Virus record (IMG/VR): IMGVR_UViG_2579779007_000006
Coordinates: 1-41,819 of that record
Strand: one strand, 5' to 3'
DNA length: 41,819 nt
Source of the DNA: a virus
Taxonomy: Duplodnaviria; Heunggongvirae; Uroviricota; Caudoviricetes
A program made the position numbers and the translations under genes. Positions 1 to 40,451 of this stretch are shown here, piece after piece. Under the pieces are notes generated by a model, which did no database searches, had not been told where the DNA came from, and was given only the letters and a program-made list of their open reading frames with translations. Every line of letters begins with the position of its first letter. Position 1 is the stretch's first letter.

Positions 1-804
1 TTACTCTTTGTCCTCAACCAACAATGAGTTTTCGAAAGTAAATTCAGGTATGGGAACAACTTTGTCTTGGGAGAAAATAGCTTTTTTAATTACATGTTTA
101 TTTTTACACGTCTTGCAATATAACTCTGCTCCATCCTCCATGTCGCATAATGAGATGTGGTTTTTTTCACCACATATAAAGCAAGCTACTACAGCAGATT
201 GGAGTGATTCATATGTACCATCCGGGGCAAGTCTAATAATAACATAATTATGGCAACCAGCATTTTGGCAATCTATTTTATTATTTTTTTTCACGTAATT
301 TTTAGTAAAAATAATTTCCTTTTTACATTTTTCACATTTTATTTTCTCATAACCTCGATGAAATGTTATGAGCTGATGATCGCACAGTTCAGCTAAATTC
401 GATAATATCGAATTTAGTTTATCTTTATCTACTTGAAATTCTTGCTTTTTTATGGTTGGTTGATGTAAAAAACTCCCAAGGGTATTATACCATTTATTAA
501 GGTCCTTATACTTAATATTTTTATAGTTTGCTGTTATCTCATTAGAGTCATCACAAGTTATAGTTACTTTTAAATCCTGATCTGCTGTTTCCTCAAACAT
601 GCATAAAGATTTTATTGCTTGAGGTGGTTGCCATGTGTTAATTACCGTCTCTGGAATTGTTCCTAGCCCTGCTCTTAATTGAATATATACATGGCACTCA
701 ATTGCAAATCTCAATTCCAATGCACAGTATCTTAAAGAAGCGTTATCCCCAATTTCATAGAGCCTCTTAGCATTGCTAATATGCTCTTTATAATCATACC
801 CCAT
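1..804 (-). CDS. hypothetical Cys-rich protein, 267 aa, several CxxC pairs (zinc-ribbon-like)
   Basis: Complete ORF: stop codon is the reverse complement of bases 1..3, start at 804. Translation has paired cysteines (CEKC, CQNAGC, CFICGEK, CKTCKNK). Strongly AT-rich compared with the phage structural genes. No family recognised. Confidence 0.5.
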   Translation of the reverse strand: MGYDYKEHISNAKRLYEIGDNASLRYCALELRFAIECHVYIQLRAGLGTIPETVINTWQPPQAIKSLCMFEETADQDLKVTITCDDSNEITANYKNIKYKDLNKWYNTLGSFLHQPTIKKQEFQVDKDKLNSILSNLAELCDHQLITFHRGYEKIKCEKCKKEIIFTKNYVKKNNKIDCQNAGCHNYVIIRLAPDGTYESLQSAVVACFICGEKNHISLCDMEDGAELYCKTCKNKHVIKKAIFSQDKVVPIPEFTFENSLLVEDKE

Positions 805-1537
805 ATACTCCCTCCTACATCTCCGGCTAGATTGTAACTTATATAGTGTATCTTAGATCATCTCACTATCTAAGTAAGATATCATGGGGTATCGGAAGTT
901 CAACTCCTCGCATCAGTCAATAATTTAAATAAAAACAGACGGTTATGTCTTTATTTATTGTTTCCTCTAACTTCCTCCCCGTTGATTAACACACGCGCCA
1001 TAGTCAACTAAATCGGTTGCGACCGGGAGAAGCGGTAGCCAAAATTTTGCCACGATACGAGTGCTTGCCATCCCCCCTCAACTTCCGCTTTTGGCACATA
1101 GCAGCCCTAGAGACAGTGGCGTAAAGTCATGGAGGGTCGGTGGCAGGAGATGCAAATCCTCTCATACAAAAATACGTAAAATCAATAACGGCTAGAAATC
1201 ATTCAATACTCGCACTATCTAACATTTACCAGCCAACCGCAGCACGTCTTGCATACGACCTGTCTGCGGTTTCAATCACCTCTCACCACCAGTCCCATCA
1301 ATAATAATTAAACAGCGCCTAAACAAAATAAATAACAACAAGTCAACAACCTCGACAGGATGCCGATGGGATGATGAAGAGATAAGAAAGAATAACTAGT
1401 AAAGCCCTAAAACGTCAGCGTTCAGACGCGTTTTTTACTTAACCGGTAACAAATACGTTGTATCATAGCAACATAAAATGATTGTTCTAAATCAGATTAA
1501 CTCCTCACTTTTGTACAATGTCGCTTACAGGTATACC

Positions 1538-3427
1538 ATGAAATCCGAGACGCTAACTGTCCAACAACTTTTTCAAGACCGCCGACAATACTGCGTTCCA
1601 TTCTATCAACGTGCCTATGTATGGACTCAGCGAAACCAATGGTCAGCTCTACTGGAGGATATCCTAGAGAAAGCACAATCCCGGCTCTCGGGTACAAAAC
1701 CAACTCCCCATTTCCTTGGTGCAGTGGTACTGGAACCTCAACCAAAAAAAGGATTATTAGGTGTAGATTCCATACATATTATTGATGGTCAGCAACGATT
1801 GACCACTCTTCAATATGTTCTGGCATCCATCCGATTAGCATTACGTGCGACAGATCTTTCCAACTTAGAGCCTCTCATTTCGTCTTGCCTGAAAAACTCA
1901 AACGAAGACACAATGCGAAATAAAGAAGTAGAGCGCTTCAAACTGTGGCCAACTTTTCGGGATCAAACTCATTTTATTCAAAGTTTTAATGTTGAAAATA
2001 TTGACGATATCCGGAATGTATTCTCTGATAGTTTCACGCAGCATGGTACGTTGCGTAAGCATTTTAATCACCCGCCATCACTAGAAGCATTATGTTTTTT
2101 TACTGAAGCCTTTATAAAGTGGATTAAAATAGAAAATCACTCACCACGAGAAAATGCTGTAGCATTAATTGAGGCTGTCTTGACGGATCTGAAACTAGTA
2201 AGCATATTTCTCGAGGCTGAAGATGACGCTCAAATAATTTTTGAAACATTAAATGGCAGAGGTGCGGAACTTCATGCCACAGATCTTATTCGCAATTATA
2301 TTTTTATGTGCGCTGAACATGAAAATATTAATGCTGTTGAATTATATGAGAATGAGTGGAAGATCTTTGAAGATACGTACTGGTCAGAAAGACAACGTCG
2401 TGGTCGTATTAATAAACCACGCATGGAGTGGCTAGTGCATGCGACATTGCAATCAGAAAGGCAACGTGAAATCGATCTGTCTCGTCTTTACAATGAGTAT
2501 CGTGATTATGTAAGTAAGGACTTGCCTTCACAACGAGCAGATCTGCAAGTAAAGCGCCTCAAACAATATGCATCACAATATAAAGAATTGGTTGGTGGTT
2601 TTGGCACAACCCCCATCTCACACTTTGGACATCGCATCGCAGCCTATGATGTGACGACACTTTATCCGCTTGCTTTGTTCATTTCGATAGCTAACATCGC
2701 CGATGATGAGAAAGCAGCCATGTATAATGATCTTGTCTCCTACGTAGTACGAAGAGCCGTATGTGGCCTGACGCCAAAGAATTACAACAATGTATTTATG
2801 AATGTATTGCGGCACTTGTCTAAAACGGAAATTTCCAGTGTTGAGTTACGTAATATCCTCAATAGCTTAAATGGCGAAGCCTCACGTTGGCCTGGGGACT
2901 CAGAATTTCTCAACGCTTGCATCAATGCTCCACTTTATCCTGGCAGGCTCGACGCACCGAAAATGCGCTCAATGTTAACGGAACTTGAAAGAGAACTTTG
3001 TCGCCAAGTGAAGACAGAGAAGCCTGATGTTCCAAATCTTTCTAACCTCGATATCGATCATCTTATGCCTCAAAGTTGGTATTCCTGTTGGCCTCTCGAA
3101 AATGGTCATATGGTGACAAATTCAGATGCTACGGTATTGAACCAAATTGTTCTGTCTGGAACCGATCTTACCCCTGAACAGCTACTGGTAAGGAAACGGC
3201 AACAAGCGATAGCTACGTTGGGAAATCTAACTTTGCTTAACCTTAGCGTAAACCGTTCTGTTCAGAATGCTGTATTTCTGAAAAAACGTGATGCTCTCAT
3301 CGTCCACACCAATCTACGACTGAACATTCCACTTATAGTTAAGGATAAATGGGATGAGGATGAAATCCTGGAGCGGGGTAAAAAGTTGGGGGAAATTGCA
3401 TTGAAAGTATGGCCAAAACACGATTAA
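1538..3427 (+). CDS. GmrSD-like type IV restriction endonuclease candidate (DUF262 N-terminal, DUF1524/HNH-like C-terminal)
   Basis: N-terminal FYQRAYVW and IIDGQQRLTT motifs are typical of DUF262; C-terminal DIDHLMPQSW is a His-Me finger-like motif. Start chosen at MKSETLTVQQLF; the longest ORF begins at 1478. Confidence 0.7.
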   Translation: MKSETLTVQQLFQDRRQYCVPFYQRAYVWTQRNQWSALLEDILEKAQSRLSGTKPTPHFLGAVVLEPQPKKGLLGVDSIHIIDGQQRLTTLQYVLASIRLALRATDLSNLEPLISSCLKNSNEDTMRNKEVERFKLWPTFRDQTHFIQSFNVENIDDIRNVFSDSFTQHGTLRKHFNHPPSLEALCFFTEAFIKWIKIENHSPRENAVALIEAVLTDLKLVSIFLEAEDDAQIIFETLNGRGAELHATDLIRNYIFMCAEHENINAVELYENEWKIFEDTYWSERQRRGRINKPRMEWLVHATLQSERQREIDLSRLYNEYRDYVSKDLPSQRADLQVKRLKQYASQYKELVGGFGTTPISHFGHRIAAYDVTTLYPLALFISIANIADDEKAAMYNDLVSYVVRRAVCGLTPKNYNNVFMNVLRHLSKTEISSVELRNILNSLNGEASRWPGDSEFLNACINAPLYPGRLDAPKMRSMLTELERELCRQVKTEKPDVPNLSNLDIDHLMPQSWYSCWPLENGHMVTNSDATVLNQIVLSGTDLTPEQLLVRKRQQAIATLGNLTLLNLSVNRSVQNAVFLKKRDALIVHTNLRLNIPLIVKDKWDEDEILERGKKLGEIALKVWPKHD

Positions 3428-3522
3428 TGCAATTAATAAAATGATTATAGCGGCTTTACATTAGTAAGGCCGCTACTCACTATTAAATCCTTTAATTTGC
3501 AACAAGAACAGCAGTGTCAGCC

Positions 3523-3651
3523 CTAGGTTTCGGACTTTGTACCGCTTATCTTGTCTTCAAAAATCAGCTCGCATCCTGCACAGCTCAACGCATTACGTTG
3601 TAGATCGGTGTTCTGGTCATTTGTTGATACGCGTACATAGCCAATAAGCAT
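3523..3651 (-). pseudogene. truncated Pin/Gin/Cin-family serine DNA invertase (N-terminal 42 codons only)
   Basis: Minus-strand translation MLIGYVRVSTNDQNTDLQRNALSCAGCELIFEDKISGT matches the N-terminus of Pin/Gin invertases, including the catalytic serine context (VRVST), then ends at a stop after 42 codons. The rest of the gene is absent. Confidence 0.75.
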
Positions 3652-3677
3652 GGTAGCTCCCCCTGACAAAAGCAGGA

Positions 3678-4214
3678 ATGATGCCATTTGCTCGTTATTT
3701 CTGCATTTTCATAAACGTTGGTTTGGGAGAAGGTTCGGCATTACCCGTTGGCGTGCCTGTTCCGTGGCCTTCCGCCACTCCGCCAACAGGCTGGCTGAAA
3801 TGCAACGGAGCGGCTTTTTCTGCTGAAGAATACCCGGAACTGGCAAAGGTTTACCCGACCAATAAATTGCCTGATTTACGTGGTGAGTTTATTCGTGGCT
3901 GGGATGATGAACGTGGTGTGGATAGTGGGCGAACTCTGCTTTCAGCGCAAGGAGATGCTATTCGAAACATTACTGGCGGTTTTGGTCAGTTGCGCGTAAA
4001 CAGCGAAATTAATGCAATTGTCGATGTTCAAAGTGTGAGTGGGGCTTTTTACGGAGGTACCTCAGTCAGGAATAACATCAATGTATCTATGACATACGCT
4101 AATGACCGAAAAATCCGACAAGATGTTCACTTCTCGGCGGCAAATGTTGTTCCAACAGCAAATGAAAATCGTCCACGTAACATCGCCTTTAATTATATTG
4201 TGAGGGCCGCATGA
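3678..4214 (+). CDS. alternative tail-fibre C-terminal (variable) segment, silent orientation
   Basis: ORF shares the GLGE junction with the minus-strand tail fibre and lies inside the invertible segment followed by its own tfa. It has no constant N-terminal domain in this orientation. Confidence 0.6.
   Translation: MMPFARYFCIFINVGLGEGSALPVGVPVPWPSATPPTGWLKCNGAAFSAEEYPELAKVYPTNKLPDLRGEFIRGWDDERGVDSGRTLLSAQGDAIRNITGGFGQLRVNSEINAIVDVQSVSGAFYGGTSVRNNINVSMTYANDRKIRQDVHFSAANVVPTANENRPRNIAFNYIVRAA
3706..3731. repeat. invertase crossover site (pix/gix-like), left copy
   Basis: ttttcataaacgttggtttgggagaa; its reverse complement shares a perfect 14-bp core (ttctcccaaaccaa) with 5590..5615. Both copies lie on the codons for LGLGE in the two tail-fibre reading frames. 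Confidence 0.7.
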
Positions 4215-4816
4215 TGAATAAAGCTGTATTGAATAGCGAACTCATTGCCATAAAAGCGGGAGACATTATCATTTATAATTATGATGGTGAAACGCGGGAA
4301 TATATTTCTACATCAACTGAATATCTCGCTGTCGGCGTCGGTATCCCGGCATGTTCCTGTTTGGATGCACCAGGTACACATAAAGCTGGTTATGCAATCT
4401 GTCGCTCTGTAGATTTAAATTCATGGGAATATGTGCCAGACCATCGCGGTGAAGTTGTCTATAGTACCGAAACGGGAGATACCAAAGAAATCGCAGTTCC
4501 GGGTGATTATCCTGAAAATACAACCACTATCGCCCCGTTAACGCCATATGATAAATGGGATGGTGAGAAATGGGTGACGGATACTGAGGCACAGCATAGT
4601 GCCGCAGTAGACGCGGCAGAAGCACAGCGCCAGTCACTGATTGATGCAGCAATGGCTTCCATTAGTCTGATTCAGCTGAAATTACAGGCCGGACGGAAGT
4701 TGACGCAGGCAGAAACAACCCGACTTAACGCCGTGCTGGATTACACTGACGCGGTGACGGCAACAGATACCAGCACCGCGCCGGATGTCATCTGGCCTGA
4801 ACTGCCGGAGGCGTAG
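4211..4816 (+). CDS. tail fibre assembly protein (Tfa), partner of the silent fibre segment
   Basis: Tfa-like C-terminus (APDVIWPELP) mirrors that of the opposite-strand Tfa (APDIEWPTPP); start overlaps the stop of the preceding ORF. Confidence 0.7.
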   Translation: MMNKAVLNSELIAIKAGDIIIYNYDGETREYISTSTEYLAVGVGIPACSCLDAPGTHKAGYAICRSVDLNSWEYVPDHRGEVVYSTETGDTKEIAVPGDYPENTTTIAPLTPYDKWDGEKWVTDTEAQHSAAVDAAEAQRQSLIDAAMASISLIQLKLQAGRKLTQAETTRLNAVLDYTDAVTATDTSTAPDVIWPELPEA

Positions 4817-5228
4817 GCCATTCAATATCTGGCGCACTGGAAGTATCGACCAGTTCCAGTGCGTCCAGATAATCCAGCCACAGATTATATTGCGCCAGAT
4901 CCTCGCCTTTCAGACGACCAATAGCGGCTTTACCGGGCCATTGTTTACTGTTCATGTATTCATTGGCCTGGCTAATTAACTGCTGTTTTTTAGTTTCAGC
5001 AATATCCATAACCATTTTTTTATCTGGCGGAGATATTAATATCCATGCAGGTCTCCCCTGAGAGGTGGCACCTAATATAAAACCATCAGGAGGAATTTGC
5101 GTATATTTATTCCATTCATCATCTGATATTTCGATAGCATCATCTGGCCATCCAATACCGTTGTGATATTCTTCTTTGCGAGTTTCATCATAAAACCACA
5201 ATGTTGATGCACTGAAAAAAATTCTCAT
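4788..5228 (-). CDS. tail fibre assembly protein (Tfa), expressed orientation
   Basis: 146 aa directly downstream of the expressed tail fibre; conserved Tfa C-terminal motif. Confidence 0.75.
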   Translation of the reverse strand: MRIFFSASTLWFYDETRKEEYHNGIGWPDDAIEISDDEWNKYTQIPPDGFILGATSQGRPAWILISPPDKKMVMDIAETKKQQLISQANEYMNSKQWPGKAAIGRLKGEDLAQYNLWLDYLDALELVDTSSAPDIEWPTPPAVQAR

Positions 5229-5229
5229 T

Positions 5230-5892
5230 CTAATATCCTATCGCAAACCACGAGAAAGAAAGTTCTCTGGAATTGGCTGTTGGTGGCTGACCAATGCCCC
5301 CACGATAAAACGCCAGAGTTAATCCTCCTGCTTTGCGTGATGTTGTTTGAGCAAATACATAGTCATTTGTGTTCTCTTCCGCACTTAAAGCTCCTCCGGC
5401 AATACAGTCATTAGGGAATGCTGCAGGGAAATTAATCCAGATACTGGACTGCGTTGTCAGCTTTCCATACCCGGCTTTCAGAATTAATCCTCCTGGTAAC
5501 TCAAAATTAAGAGGATTGTTTTTTGTAAATGGAAAGTTGGAGATATCCGGTATCTGATTTTCCCCTGTCCCCACATCCCGTTTTGCCGCTTCTCCCAAAC
5601 CAAGGTTTTCGAGAGCCGTTTTCACCGTGCCATCCGATTTGATATCACCAAACGGATTCTTGCGGCTTAACAGCAGAGCACGAAGCGCGGTAAGCAACTG
5701 GTCATGCCGCCCCTTCTCCAGGCTGGCACCGGAGGTCTCCACAACGCTGCAAAGCTCCTCCTGCAACATGTCAAAGTAGTCATCATCCAGATCGGTGGCA
5801 GGCGTACCAGTCTGGGGATTACCACGGGTAAAACCGTTCTTACCCGCGCCGAACTTATCCTTCTGCGCGGTTTTCGTGTCTATACGATGCAT
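5230..5892 (-). CDS. side tail fibre protein (e14 StfE/StfP-like constant N-terminus plus variable C-terminus)
   Basis: N-terminus [52 protein letters not shown] recalls the e14 side tail fibre; the crossover site falls at residues 95-101 (ENLGLGE). Confidence 0.8.
5590..5615. repeat. invertase crossover site (pix/gix-like), right copy
   Basis: ttctcccaaaccaaggttttcgagag, in inverted orientation relative to 3706..3731. Confidence 0.7.
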
Positions 5893-6480: not shown

Positions 6481-7529
6481 GAAATCGTCCCCAGTACCGC
6501 CAGTTCATTTTTTGCAATGGAGATATTGTCTGCCGGTGCAAGCAACTGATGGCTGTATTCCCCGTTCGCACCGGAAATCGCTTCACTGATACGTGACACC
6601 TTCAGTTCTCCCTGCGGATAACCATCACGCAGCAGGAACGAACGCAACTCCGCGGTAATGGCAGCCCGTATTTCTGGTGTGTCCGGCGTCACGCGGATAT
6701 GAAAATCCACCGTATGTGCCACCGGCCTGAATACATACAAATCAGAGCCTGCCACCGGGGCCAGTGGCCCGATATGTTGTCTTGCTGCCGTTTCCGTTGA
6801 TTCTTCCGGAATGGGATTAATCAGGTCACTGCTGGCAATCATCACACCGACAGTTCCCGTTCCCATCCAGTGGCGGTATGTCCATGCACGGGTAATGCCT
6901 GGCACTTCTTTAGCCCAGACGACATAGTCCCCGTCAGCCCCGCCCTGAGGCGTCCAGTAATACCGCTCAATGACGCGGGCGCGCCACGTTTCCAGCTCTT
7001 CAGTATCAAATCCGCCTGTCAGGGTGTCAGCCACACCGGAAGACGGCAGACCATTCACCGGCGTGACCAGGATTAATGCCGTACCGTCGTCAGCGTTACC
7101 GACCGCGCCTGTAGTTGAGCAAGTGATCGGCACACGCAGGACACCACCGGAGCTGGTTGCATCGGCAGTTGCCGTGTACTGAACCAGGTCATCGCGCTGA
7201 ATCACGCTCCCGGCAGTCACCTTCAGGCCATCGCTGACACCTTCCCAGCGCATATACCCGCTGGCAGCCGTGGCCCCCTTGCGCGGACACCGTTTCATCG
7301 CAGCATGTCGCGCCAGCCAGGACTCATCGCACAGGTCAGGCAGCATATTCATTGCCAGATAATCGATGTACCCGTAAACCGTATGCAGCGCCGCCGCATA
7401 CACCTTTGCCCGCACGTCTTCATCCATGCGCCGGAGCGTGTCGCTGACGTCCAGCCTGGCGAATAAATCGTTACGGAGCATACTGATATTTTCTGCCAGC
7501 GTCGGGCGCTGAAATTCACTGTCCGCCAT
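6471..7529 (-). CDS. baseplate J-like protein (Mu gp47-like)
   Basis: 352 aa in conserved gene order between the gp46-like and gp48-like genes; overlapping start/stop. Confidence 0.75.
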
Positions 7530-7944
7530 GCGTTATCGCACTCCACAGATCATCAAAAGAAATCATTACCGGTCCGTCACGACGCCAGAGAGTGATACTG
7601 TTACCCAGTTCATTAATCCCGGTGCGGCGGATATCCAGATCAATACGGGACACCACGCCGTCATCAACCATCCATTGCAGGCATTCGCGGATATACCCCC
7701 TTACCGTCTGCACCAGCTGATTGGTCAGTTTGCTGCGCTGAAGCAGCCACAGTCGGGAGCCGTAACGGTCATTCTGTACCGCAGGCCAGGTATCCCCCCA
7801 CCATCCCATCGGGACGTCGGCGTTGTCATCAGGCTCCGCCCGCCGCCAGGTAAACAGGGAAATCACCACGGCGCGGGTCAGCGGATCCAGCGGTGCGCTG
7901 GCGCAGGTGCGTTTACCGTTCACCGTCAGCCACAGTTCCATCAT
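7516..7944 (-). CDS. baseplate protein, Mu gp46-like
   Basis: 142 aa, conserved position in a Mu-type baseplate operon. Confidence 0.65.
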   Translation of the reverse strand: MMELWLTVNGKRTCASAPLDPLTRAVVISLFTWRRAEPDDNADVPMGWWGDTWPAVQNDRYGSRLWLLQRSKLTNQLVQTVRGYIRECLQWMVDDGVVSRIDLDIRRTGINELGNSITLWRRDGPVMISFDDLWSAITHGGQ

Positions 7945-18454: not shown

Positions 18455-19141
18455 TTAGAAGTTCAGATTTTTCAGTGCATTCAGTGCAGAGCCCACATCC
18501 TCAGCGTCGCGCAGGGACAGTGCGCCATAGCCCCCGGCCATGAATGCTTTGGCCTGGGTACGGGAGAGTCCGACATCACGCAGGACTCTTTCGATTTTTT
18601 TCTGTTCGGGGATTTCCCCGCGGGCCAGTGCGTTCTTGACGTCGCTGATCCGCGCCTCGTCGTTAGACGGGAACGTCACCAGGCTGACTTCCCAGAGGTC
18701 GATTTCTTTCAGCAGAAAGGCTTCTTTGCTCCGGTCGTATTCCCAGTCTTTCAGGACGTACCCAATAGAAAGGCCGGTTAACGAACCGGCCTTCATGTGT
18801 GCATGTGCGCGTTTTGCGAGGGGATCATCATCAATAAGCAACCGTCCCCTGACGTAAAGCCCGACATCGTCTTCCTTCATTTCGGTGTAAACACCGATGG
18901 GTTCATCCATGCGGTGCTGCCAGAGCAGCGCAGGTAACGCTTTTCTGTCACTCCACGCCCGCAGGGAAGCAGCAAATGCCCCGGACATCACCACATCATC
19001 GTGGCTGTCCTTTACACCAAAGACGGAGCCATACCCTTCAAACTCACCGGAGTCACTGACAGATTTCAGACTCAGCGGTACATCAAGACGTTGTTTCGTC
19101 TGCATTGGCGTTATCCTTCTGCTTACCGGCTTTACTGCCAT
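18455..19141 (-). CDS. prohead protease (HK97 gp4-like)
   Basis: 228 aa between portal and capsid; true start may be the internal Met at about 19105. Confidence 0.85.
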   Translation of the reverse strand: MAVKPVSRRITPMQTKQRLDVPLSLKSVSDSGEFEGYGSVFGVKDSHDDVVMSGAFAASLRAWSDRKALPALLWQHRMDEPIGVYTEMKEDDVGLYVRGRLLIDDDPLAKRAHAHMKAGSLTGLSIGYVLKDWEYDRSKEAFLLKEIDLWEVSLVTFPSNDEARISDVKNALARGEIPEQKKIERVLRDVGLSRTQAKAFMAGGYGALSLRDAEDVGSALNALKNLNF

Positions 19142-38971: not shown

Positions 38972-39321
38972 TGGAGCCATACAGCCTCACACTCGATGAG
39001 GCCTGTCATTTTCTCAAGATATCCAGACCGACTGCCATTAACTGGATACGCACAGGGCGTCTTCAGGCAACACGCAAAGATCCCACTAAGAATAAATCTC
39101 CTTACCTCACAACACGACAAGCCTGCATTGCGGCTCTTCAGTCTCCGCTGCATACTGTCCAGGTGAGCGCGGGTGATGGCATAACAGAGGAAAGAAAATG
39201 TCACTCTTCCGCAGAGGTGAAATATGGTACGCCAGTTTCACATTGCCGAACGGTAAAAGATTTAAACAGTCTCTTGGAACAAAGGACAAAAGGCAGGCGA
39301 CAGAACTCCATGACAAGCTAA
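38971..39321 (+). CDS. xis: excisionase
   Basis: 116 aa ([36 protein letters not shown]) closely matching P22 Xis as recalled; 3' end overlaps int. Confidence 0.85.
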
Positions 39322-40361
39322 AGGCTGAAGCATGGCGGGTCAGCAAACTTGGTGAAATACCTGATATAACGTTCGAGGAAGCGTGTGTCAGGTGGCTTGA
39401 AGAGAAAGCACATAAAAAATCACTGGACGATGACAAAAGCCGGATCGGATTCTGGCTTCAACATTTCGCAGGAATGCAACTAAGAGACATTACTGAATCA
39501 AAAATTTATTCAGCAATGCAGAAAATGACGAACCGGCGTCATGAGGAAAACTGGAAACTCAGGGCAGAAGCATGCAGAAAAAAAGGGAAACCTGTTCCAG
39601 AATACACGCCAAAACCAGCGTCCGTTGCAACGAAGGCTACGCATCTTTCATTTATAAAGGCCCTACTAAGAGCCGCAGAGCGTGAATGGAAAATGCTGGA
39701 TAAGGCACCAATTATTAAAGTGCCTCAACCAAAGAATAAACGGATCCGCTGGCTGGAGCCCCATGAAGCACAAAGGCTGATTGATGAATGTCCGGAGCCA
39801 TTAAAGTCTGTTGTTGAATTTGCACTGGCAACAGGCTTAAGACGCTCGAACATCATCAACCTTGAATGGCAACAAATAGATATGCAGCGCCGGGTGGCAT
39901 GGATAAACCCGGAAGAGAGTAAATCAAACCGCGCAATTGGCGTTGCGCTGAATGATACTGCATGTCGCGTATTGAAAAAACAAATCGGGAATCATCACCG
40001 TTGGGTATTTGTGTACAAGGAAAGCTGTACCAAACCAGACGGAACGAAAGCGCCAACAGTAAGGAAGATGCGGTATGACGCAAACACAGCCTGGAAAGCG
40101 GCGCTGAGACGGGCTGGTATTGATGATTTCAGATTTCACGACTTGAGACACACCTGGGCAAGTTGGCTGGTTCAAGCCGGAGTCCCGTTGTCAGTTTTAC
40201 AGGAAATGGGAGGCTGGGAGTCTATCGAAATGGTTCGTCGATATGCTCACCTTGCACCTAATCACCTTACCGAACACGCACGGCAAATAGACTCGATCCT
40301 GAACCCATCGGTCCCAAATTTGTCCCAGTCAAAAAATAAGGAAGGTACTAATGATGTGTAA
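39198..40361 (+). CDS. int: tyrosine integrase, P22 Int-like
   Basis: 387 aa beginning [47 protein letters not shown] with the catalytic R...HDLRHTWAS...Y region, ending 14 nt from the tRNA 3' end. Confidence 0.95.
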
Positions 40362-40375
40362 CTTATTGATTTTAA

Positions 40376-40451
40376 TGGTGCCGATAATAGGAGTCGAACC
40401 TACGACCTTCGCATTACGAATGCGCTGCTCTACCAACTGAGCTATATCGGC
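40376..40451 (-). tRNA. thrW: tRNA-Thr (anticodon CGU)
   Basis: The reverse complement reads GCCGATATAGCTCAGTTGGTAGAGCAGCGCATTCGTAATGCG...GGTTCGACTCCTATTATCGGCACCA, a canonical cloverleaf with a CGT anticodon. Confidence 0.95.

Follow-up and report, generated by a model that had tools for sequence, protein, structure and literature searches.

A 42-codon invertase remnant beside a tail-fibre segment found in both orientations among Escherichia coli prophages

When the DNA invertase gene beside an invertible tail-fibre segment has been reduced to a stub, is the host-range switch locked in its present orientation? The question is raised by the left end of an E. coli prophage contained within the window (i.e. 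the whole stretch of 41,819 nucleotides that was analyzed), in which the minus strand encodes a Pin/Gin/Cin-family serine invertase for 42 codons before reaching a stop. A preliminary description of this DNA considered the switch to be likely frozen, unless a trans-acting invertase is supplied from elsewhere. The comparisons described here suggest otherwise. A dead invertase beside an invertible segment does not imply a locked switch, because only the crossover sites and the enhancer are needed in cis, while the enzymes are interchangeable. Overall, the stub is an unremarkable pseudogene, and what it adds on the mechanistic side is modest: the putative cis enhancer falls within the remnant, and differences between assembled genomes demonstrate that the orphan switch is still being flipped in nature.

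The identity of the remnant is evident from several comparisons. Its minus-strand translation reads MLIGYVRVSTNDQNTDLQRNALSCAGCELIFEDKISGTKSET before a TAG stop, PinE-like, Gin, and Cin proteins match its first 41 residues at 90-100% identity, and the catalytic serine motif (YxRVSTxxQ) is kept as MLIGYVRVSTNDQ. The Pfam Resolvase N-terminal domain is matched (E=4e-9) over profile positions 2-48 of 145 only, and the complete resolvase-type catalytic domain (~145 profile positions) is absent from the stub. When a full-length PinE-like protein was used as the tblastn query against the 41.8-kb window, residues 1-44 were the sole match, with neither a C-terminal helix-turn-helix DNA-binding domain nor a second invertase found anywhere within it. 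About three quarters of the invertase is missing, with the DNA-binding domain lost entirely and the catalytic domain lost for the most part, and the enzyme encoded in cis is, by these comparisons, dead; the stub belongs to the invertase family by descent only. It is also already known as a common, annotated E. coli pseudogene, which RefSeq labels in carrier genomes as ‘recombinase family protein, incomplete, missing C-terminus’. At the DNA level, blastn against the full-length 184-aa pinE-like gene of ACN002, which occupies the equivalent prophage position, yields 97% identity from window position 3720 down to 3528 and unrelated sequence thereafter. The spacer separating the left crossover site from the invertase start codon is 97-100% conserved relative to full-length loci. 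A sigma-70 scan of 3380-3780 returned no promoter-like site, and a terminator scan of the same interval returned one weak terminator-like match, located inside the stub.

The DNA upon which such an enzyme would act is in place (Table 1). The two 26-bp crossover sites, TTCTCCCAAACC AA CGTTTATGAAAA on the left (read on the minus strand) and TTCTCCCAAACC AA GGTTTTCGAGAG on the right, are inverted relative to one another and agree in both the inner half-site and the central dinucleotide (AA/TT). The sequence TTCTCCCAAACCAA occurs in exactly two copies in the window, namely these two sites, and none of 100 shuffles reached that count. The left site contains TTGGTTTGGGAGAAGG (3718-3733), which is identical to the repeat of the e14 P segment (PMC12529663). 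As currently assembled, the fibre gene fuses a constant N-terminal part (5609-5892) lying outside of the segment to a gp53-like C-terminal variable part (5230-5608). The alternative variable part would join the constant part upon inversion, and it is fused in precisely this manner in Res13-Sevr-PER07-33 (hereafter Res13) as a 261-aa ‘phage tail protein’. Both alternative C-termini reside within the segment on opposite strands together with their cognate chaperones, and a feature of such fibre switches that is absent here is an intact adjacent invertase gene. The preliminary description had reported a 42-codon invertase N-terminus starting at 3651 on the minus strand with the remainder missing, as well as an intact invertible segment with both of its crossover sites. 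The former is borne out by translation, Pfam, blastn, and tblastn, and the latter by the site sequences and the ORF/Pfam layout. An in-frame ATG at 3678, situated in the spacer outside of the segment, gives the silent alternative part a 178-aa ORF, and RefSeq lists this orphan C-terminal ORF as a ‘phage tail protein’ in other genomes.

Table 1. Coordinates of the features at the prophage ends, numbered from the first letter of the window.
Feature	Position	Strand	Basis or remark
GmrSD-family type IV (modification-dependent) restriction enzyme gene	1538..3427	+	Pfam, PADLOC
Truncation junction (invertase homology ends, cargo DNA starts)	3508..3528	.	blastn end point 3528
Invertase remnant (42 codons + stop), Pin/Gin/Cin-family serine invertase pseudogene	3523..3651	-	translation, Pfam, blastn, RefSeq
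Region homologous to the Fis-dependent recombinational enhancer	~3567-3630	-	two G-N13-C 15-mers, 3616-3630 and 3567-3581
Spacer, left crossover site to invertase start codon	3652..3705	-	RBS GGGGGAG; presumed pin promoter region
Alternative variable part (tail collar domain), now unfused	3678..4214	+	Pfam Collar 1.6e-15
Left 26-bp crossover site	3706..3731	-	
Invertible segment, between central dinucleotides	3719..5602	.	exactly inverted in Res13
Assembly chaperone of the alternative variable part	4211..4816	+	Pfam Caudo_TAP 3e-31
Tail-fibre assembly chaperone of the currently expressed variable part	4788..5228	-	Pfam Caudo_TAP 4.1e-30
Tail-fibre gene as now assembled	5230..5892	-	ORF; Pfam Gp53-like_C 5.4e-12
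Right 26-bp crossover site, within the tail-fibre gene	5590..5615	+	
Integrase	39198-40361		right end of window
tRNA-Thr(CGT)	40376-40451		right end of window; proA-like gene also at right end

Immediately to the left of the stub and convergent with it lies the GmrSD-family gene, whose product combines GmrSD_N (6.9e-34) and GmrSD_C (5.1e-20) Pfam matches in one polypeptide; both the N-terminal DUF262 and the C-terminal DUF1524 domains of this family are therefore present in the same ORF. PADLOC assigns it to mREase_IV with 1440.7 bits over the full 629-position profile, starting from ORF residue 21. To the right of this gene, a 201-nt junction probe (window 3400-3600) is matched by full-length pinE genes only from probe nt 129, which corresponds to window position 3528, with weak, degenerate invertase similarity possibly extending past this point for ~20 nt, to ~3508. 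Among the carriers, the junction also exhibits a 1-nt indel polymorphism (window 3523-3530), and the position of the stop varies. In ET201 and GPEC1405, an extra G extends the frame to ~60 codons, the added part being unrelated sequence, and their stubs measure 183 nt in RefSeq versus 123 nt elsewhere. As read from these alignments, the invertase is cut by replacement with the GmrSD cargo, rather than by a nonsense mutation or a read error. This end of the prophage, with its GmrSD gene, looks like a variable defence-gene hotspot.

The window as a whole represents a prophage of ~41 kb at thrW, with the fibre, stub, and cargo at its left end. Between the integrase and the fibre are head genes as well as Mu-type tail and baseplate genes, and we infer a complete structural module from ORF sizes that match those of the annotated Res13 prophage. 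A 64-nt copy of the thrW 3' region (window 40358-40421 versus 18942-19005 of the Res13 sequence L007, 95% identity) is found in Res13 ~1 kb past the position of the window's left end. This copy probably marks the other att site, which would place both the stub and the defence cargo inside the prophage boundaries. With a carrier defined by at least 80% coverage of the junction probe, 303 of the 5426 complete E. coli genomes carry the junction, and the prophages bearing it are located at thrW (the window and Res13) and near ssrA in others. An identical junction in divergent strains and at two chromosomal sites points to a single ancestral truncation event that was subsequently spread with the prophage. 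In the phage collection, no record shares the junction; the matching records either begin no earlier than the break point or encode complete invertases.

What remains of the invertase gene includes the region homologous to the Fis-dependent recombinational enhancer, whose position was derived from the P1 GenBank annotation, PMC3798978, and our own alignment. In the P1 record, the Cin enhancer is assigned to cin nt 19-90, which a gap-free alignment equates with window 3562-3633, and this interval is fully retained. The stub likewise aligns gap-free to cin, gin, and hin with both conserved blocks kept. Mu gin has its two 15-mers at precisely the same distances from the site centre as the stub (95.5 and 144.5 nt), and in hin of Salmonella diarizonae, the corresponding 15-mers begin at 98 nt from the centre of hixL and together cover 64-65 nt; the published geometry of the Hin enhancer is a 99-bp spacing and a 65-bp length (PMC3798978). 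The truncation ends ~40 nt past the enhancer region, and consequently, the enzyme is lost while the putative cis element for an enzyme supplied in trans is kept. Presumably, given its homology and geometry, this region would still be functional in cis. By calculation, ~84% of random breakpoints in a 555-nt gene would retain nt 1-90. Since retention by chance is likely, it provides no evidence of selection on the enhancer. Similarly, when ~9 carriers were aligned, no excess conservation of the stub over the adjacent non-coding DNA was found (~8 variable sites of 126 versus ~9 of 100 in the neighbouring intergenic DNA). A more ambitious proposal would be that the remnant is a stand-alone cis enhancer module, with its first ~125 nt under selection, through which this prophage family outsources host-range switching to the invertases of co-resident or superinfecting elements. 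We regard this as a doubtful extension. If it were true, the fibre orientation would be determined only in the presence of a further phage or plasmid that carries an invertase.

When compared with known systems, the locus operates on the same plan as the Mu G, P1 C, and e14 P switches, apart from the intact adjacent invertase that those possess. Close parallels are shared with the P segment and PinE of e14 in K-12 (where PinQ and PinR of Qin and Rac are also found), which similarly consists of a split tail-fibre gene and two tfa chaperones and has the TTGGTTTGGGAGAAGG crossover repeat in common with the window; the stub DNA is 97% identical to pinE-like genes, and trans action by the invertases of other prophages is documented for e14 (PMC12529663). 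Unlike e14, the adjacent invertase here ends after 42 codons and is followed by the GmrSD gene, and the element harbouring the locus is a full-length Mu-tail-type prophage at thrW. In the Mu G segment with its invertase Gin, the distance from the site centre to the start codon is likewise 67 nt, and baseplate genes of the gp47/gp48 type likewise precede the fibre. According to the title of Kahmann et al. 1985, as cited in PMC3798978, the Mu enhancer resides inside the invertase gene. However, Mu encodes an intact gin followed by com/mom, whereas here a restriction gene stands in for the 3' part of the invertase gene, and the fibre has a short constant part (94 aa). For the P1 C segment, the cin enhancer and the stub share the blocks CGCGTATCAACAAATGA and GCAGGATGxGAGCTxATT, but it is the 3' rather than the 5' end of cin that faces the segment, which places the enhancer ~500 bp from cixL. 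The Hin/hix system of Salmonella also employs 26-bp sites with a central AA, and its 65-bp Fis enhancer starts 99 bp from hixL within the 5' coding region of hin. In contrast, hin is intact, and its switch controls a promoter instead of a tail-fibre C-terminus. Lastly, pinH (b2648) of K-12 is, like the stub, a chromosomal fragment of a Pin-family invertase, but it is a middle fragment (~residues 40-95 plus an unrelated tail) and is not located beside an invertible segment. It was rejected as the same pseudogene, since it derives from a different part of the gene and does not match the stub region in DNA. The MG1655 pinH gene (7066-7305 of L013) begins roughly where the stub ends, which may be a coincidence.

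Whether the segment still inverts was assessed by a comparison of assemblies, i.e. between genomes. Res13 is 99.97% identical to the window over 1-3732, and 3713-5608 is inverted at 99.4% identity. It is the only complete genome having the window's own allele pair behind the stub, and its orientation is the opposite one. Nine of the 11 mismatches between the window and the inverted Res13 segment lie within the initial 140 nt at the collar-type end (window 3734-3850), and this clustering suggests a small allele-exchange patch in addition to the inversion. A second allele pair is exemplified by APEC O1 and IHE3034 versus APEC E16002 and W224N. In this comparison, the flanks are 99.94-99.98% identical, and a 1939-nt segment encoding the same protein accessions is exactly reversed. 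Across this segment, APEC O1 and E16002 differ by only 2 mismatches, both at the outer half-site base beside the central TT and both staying with the flanks, and this confinement to the outer half-site bases implicates the central dinucleotide as the point of exchange. Among the ST95-type carriers of that allele pair, junction-specific probes split the genomes 24 to 79 between the two orientations, each of which is represented by matches at 100% identity. Both orientations are found within O1:K1:H7 strains and also within O18 strains, which suggests more than one flip. Since both orientations occur behind the identical junction, this between-genome comparison shows that the segment has inverted since the truncation. 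Inferring a frozen switch is therefore, at best, strain-dependent. Regarding the preliminary description, its premise of a dead cis invertase holds, and the window contains no other, while its verdict of a likely frozen switch is at odds with the two orientations behind the same junction. It had itself pointed to the detection of both orientations in reads from a clonal culture as the contrary observation, which was approximated here by genome comparison, and its proviso concerning a trans-acting invertase was the right one.

A source of invertase in trans is plausible for many of the carriers. Pin-family invertases are widespread in E. coli, and their cross-action upon this site sequence is known. 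In K-12, the e14 P segment can be inverted by any of PinE, PinQ, and PinR, yet it is locked in the Keio pinE deletion strain, which still has pinQ and pinR (PMC12529663); this could mean either that the native trans activity is weak or that the enhancer was deleted together with the gene. Matches to invertase C-termini are present in ~5050 of the 5426 E. coli genomes at a median of 3 places each, which is an upper bound, as the queries use sequence that is absent from the stub but also carry marker sequences. Counting matches beyond the marker, Res13 has 3 candidate places. A single additional candidate place was recovered in each of APEC O1, IHE3034, APEC E16002, and UTI89, in these four with two queries that have nothing but invertase C-termini in common. 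In 26 of 60 ST95-type carrier chromosomes, including W224N, PMV-1, and ATCC 11775, blastn detected no other C-terminus of the pinE, gin, P2-like, or pinQ type. In those 26, a trans supply would have to come from plasmids, more distant invertases, or elements that have since been lost, and in carriers having no other chromosomal invertase the fibre may be locked at present, barring a plasmid, a distant recombinase, or an incoming phage. Invertible regions with no nearby recombinase have been noted previously (PMC9881135). Furthermore, DETEC-E601 encodes a cassette that is 99.3% identical to window 3706-5608 within an unrelated P2-like prophage (5001-6903 of L008), where it adjoins an intact 188-aa invertase (6966-7532), which indicates that whole cassettes are exchanged between prophage types.

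Based upon these features, the account that we consider probable is as follows. In a single ancestral event, everything after codon 42 (up to ~codon 50) would have been exchanged for defence cargo headed by the GmrSD gene, thereby killing the enzyme, while the two 26-bp sites would have been left in place along with the first ~125 nt of the gene and the putative Fis-dependent enhancer recognized there by homology and geometry. The segment would then constitute an orphan switch that is unable to flip alone, with the requirements met in cis or by the host being the sites, the enhancer, and Fis. A Pin/Gin/Cin-type invertase from another prophage, a plasmid, or a superinfecting phage would presumably flip it together with host Fis, and in a cell having no such invertase, the fibre would keep whatever orientation is present. 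The principal competing view is that the truncated cis invertase has locked the fibre in its present orientation both in this strain and in its lineage. Such a view is understandable, given a stub devoid of the DNA-binding domain and most of the catalytic domain, a window with no other invertase, the 26 of 60 related carrier chromosomes with no other detectable invertase C-terminus, and the locked P segment of the K-12 pinE deletion (PMC12529663). It nonetheless appears unlikely, as either orientation is found behind the identical junction in many genomes with clean site-specific break points, and Res13, the sole complete genome sharing the window's allele pair behind its stub, has the opposite orientation.

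The orientation differences themselves might conceivably have arisen via homologous recombination or gene conversion with a cassette in another prophage, instead of site-specific inversion. The DETEC-E601 cassette attests that cassettes move, and the clustered mismatches between the window and Res13 would also fit such an exchange. However, APEC O1 and E16002 are identical inside the segment, their outer half-site bases stay with the flanks, and the common repeat is only ~15-17 nt, which is short for RecA-dependent exchange. We consider this explanation very improbable. Less credible still is a function for the 42-residue peptide itself, for instance in regulation or through dominant-negative pairing with other invertases. 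All of the carriers examined preserve the start codon, the ribosome-binding site, and the reading frame, but the peptide covers just the beginning of the catalytic-domain profile (positions 2-48 of 145), its stop position shifts between carriers via the 1-nt indel, and its variation is no lower than that of the neighbouring non-coding DNA. As for a stop resulting from a sequencing or assembly error within an intact invertase gene, the probability is negligible. The preliminary description had allowed for an error whose correction restores the full frame, but tblastn detects no invertase coding in the window beyond residue 44. A nonsense mutation, a frameshift, and a sequencing error are ruled out alike, as no downstream invertase-coding DNA exists in any frame and the identical junction recurs in 303 independent complete genomes. 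Replacement by the GmrSD cargo, followed by inversion with an enzyme supplied in trans, remains the account that we favour.

Several consequences follow for the reading of such loci. In the ~5% of E. coli genomes carrying this prophage end, neither the fibre orientation, nor the predicted host range, nor fibre-dependent phenotypes can be taken as fixed from one assembly. The locus also provides an example in which the insertion of a defence gene disables a phage function yet leaves its DNA-level machinery. To the left of the GmrSD gene, other carriers encode a type ISP R-M enzyme, a GIY-YIG protein, a YkfI toxin, or IS3/IS5. In the window, positions 1-804 of the minus strand contain a 267-aa cysteine-rich ORF, which has several CxxC pairs and no Pfam or PADLOC match, and the region spanning 1-1091 is present in only 3 complete E. 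coli genomes.
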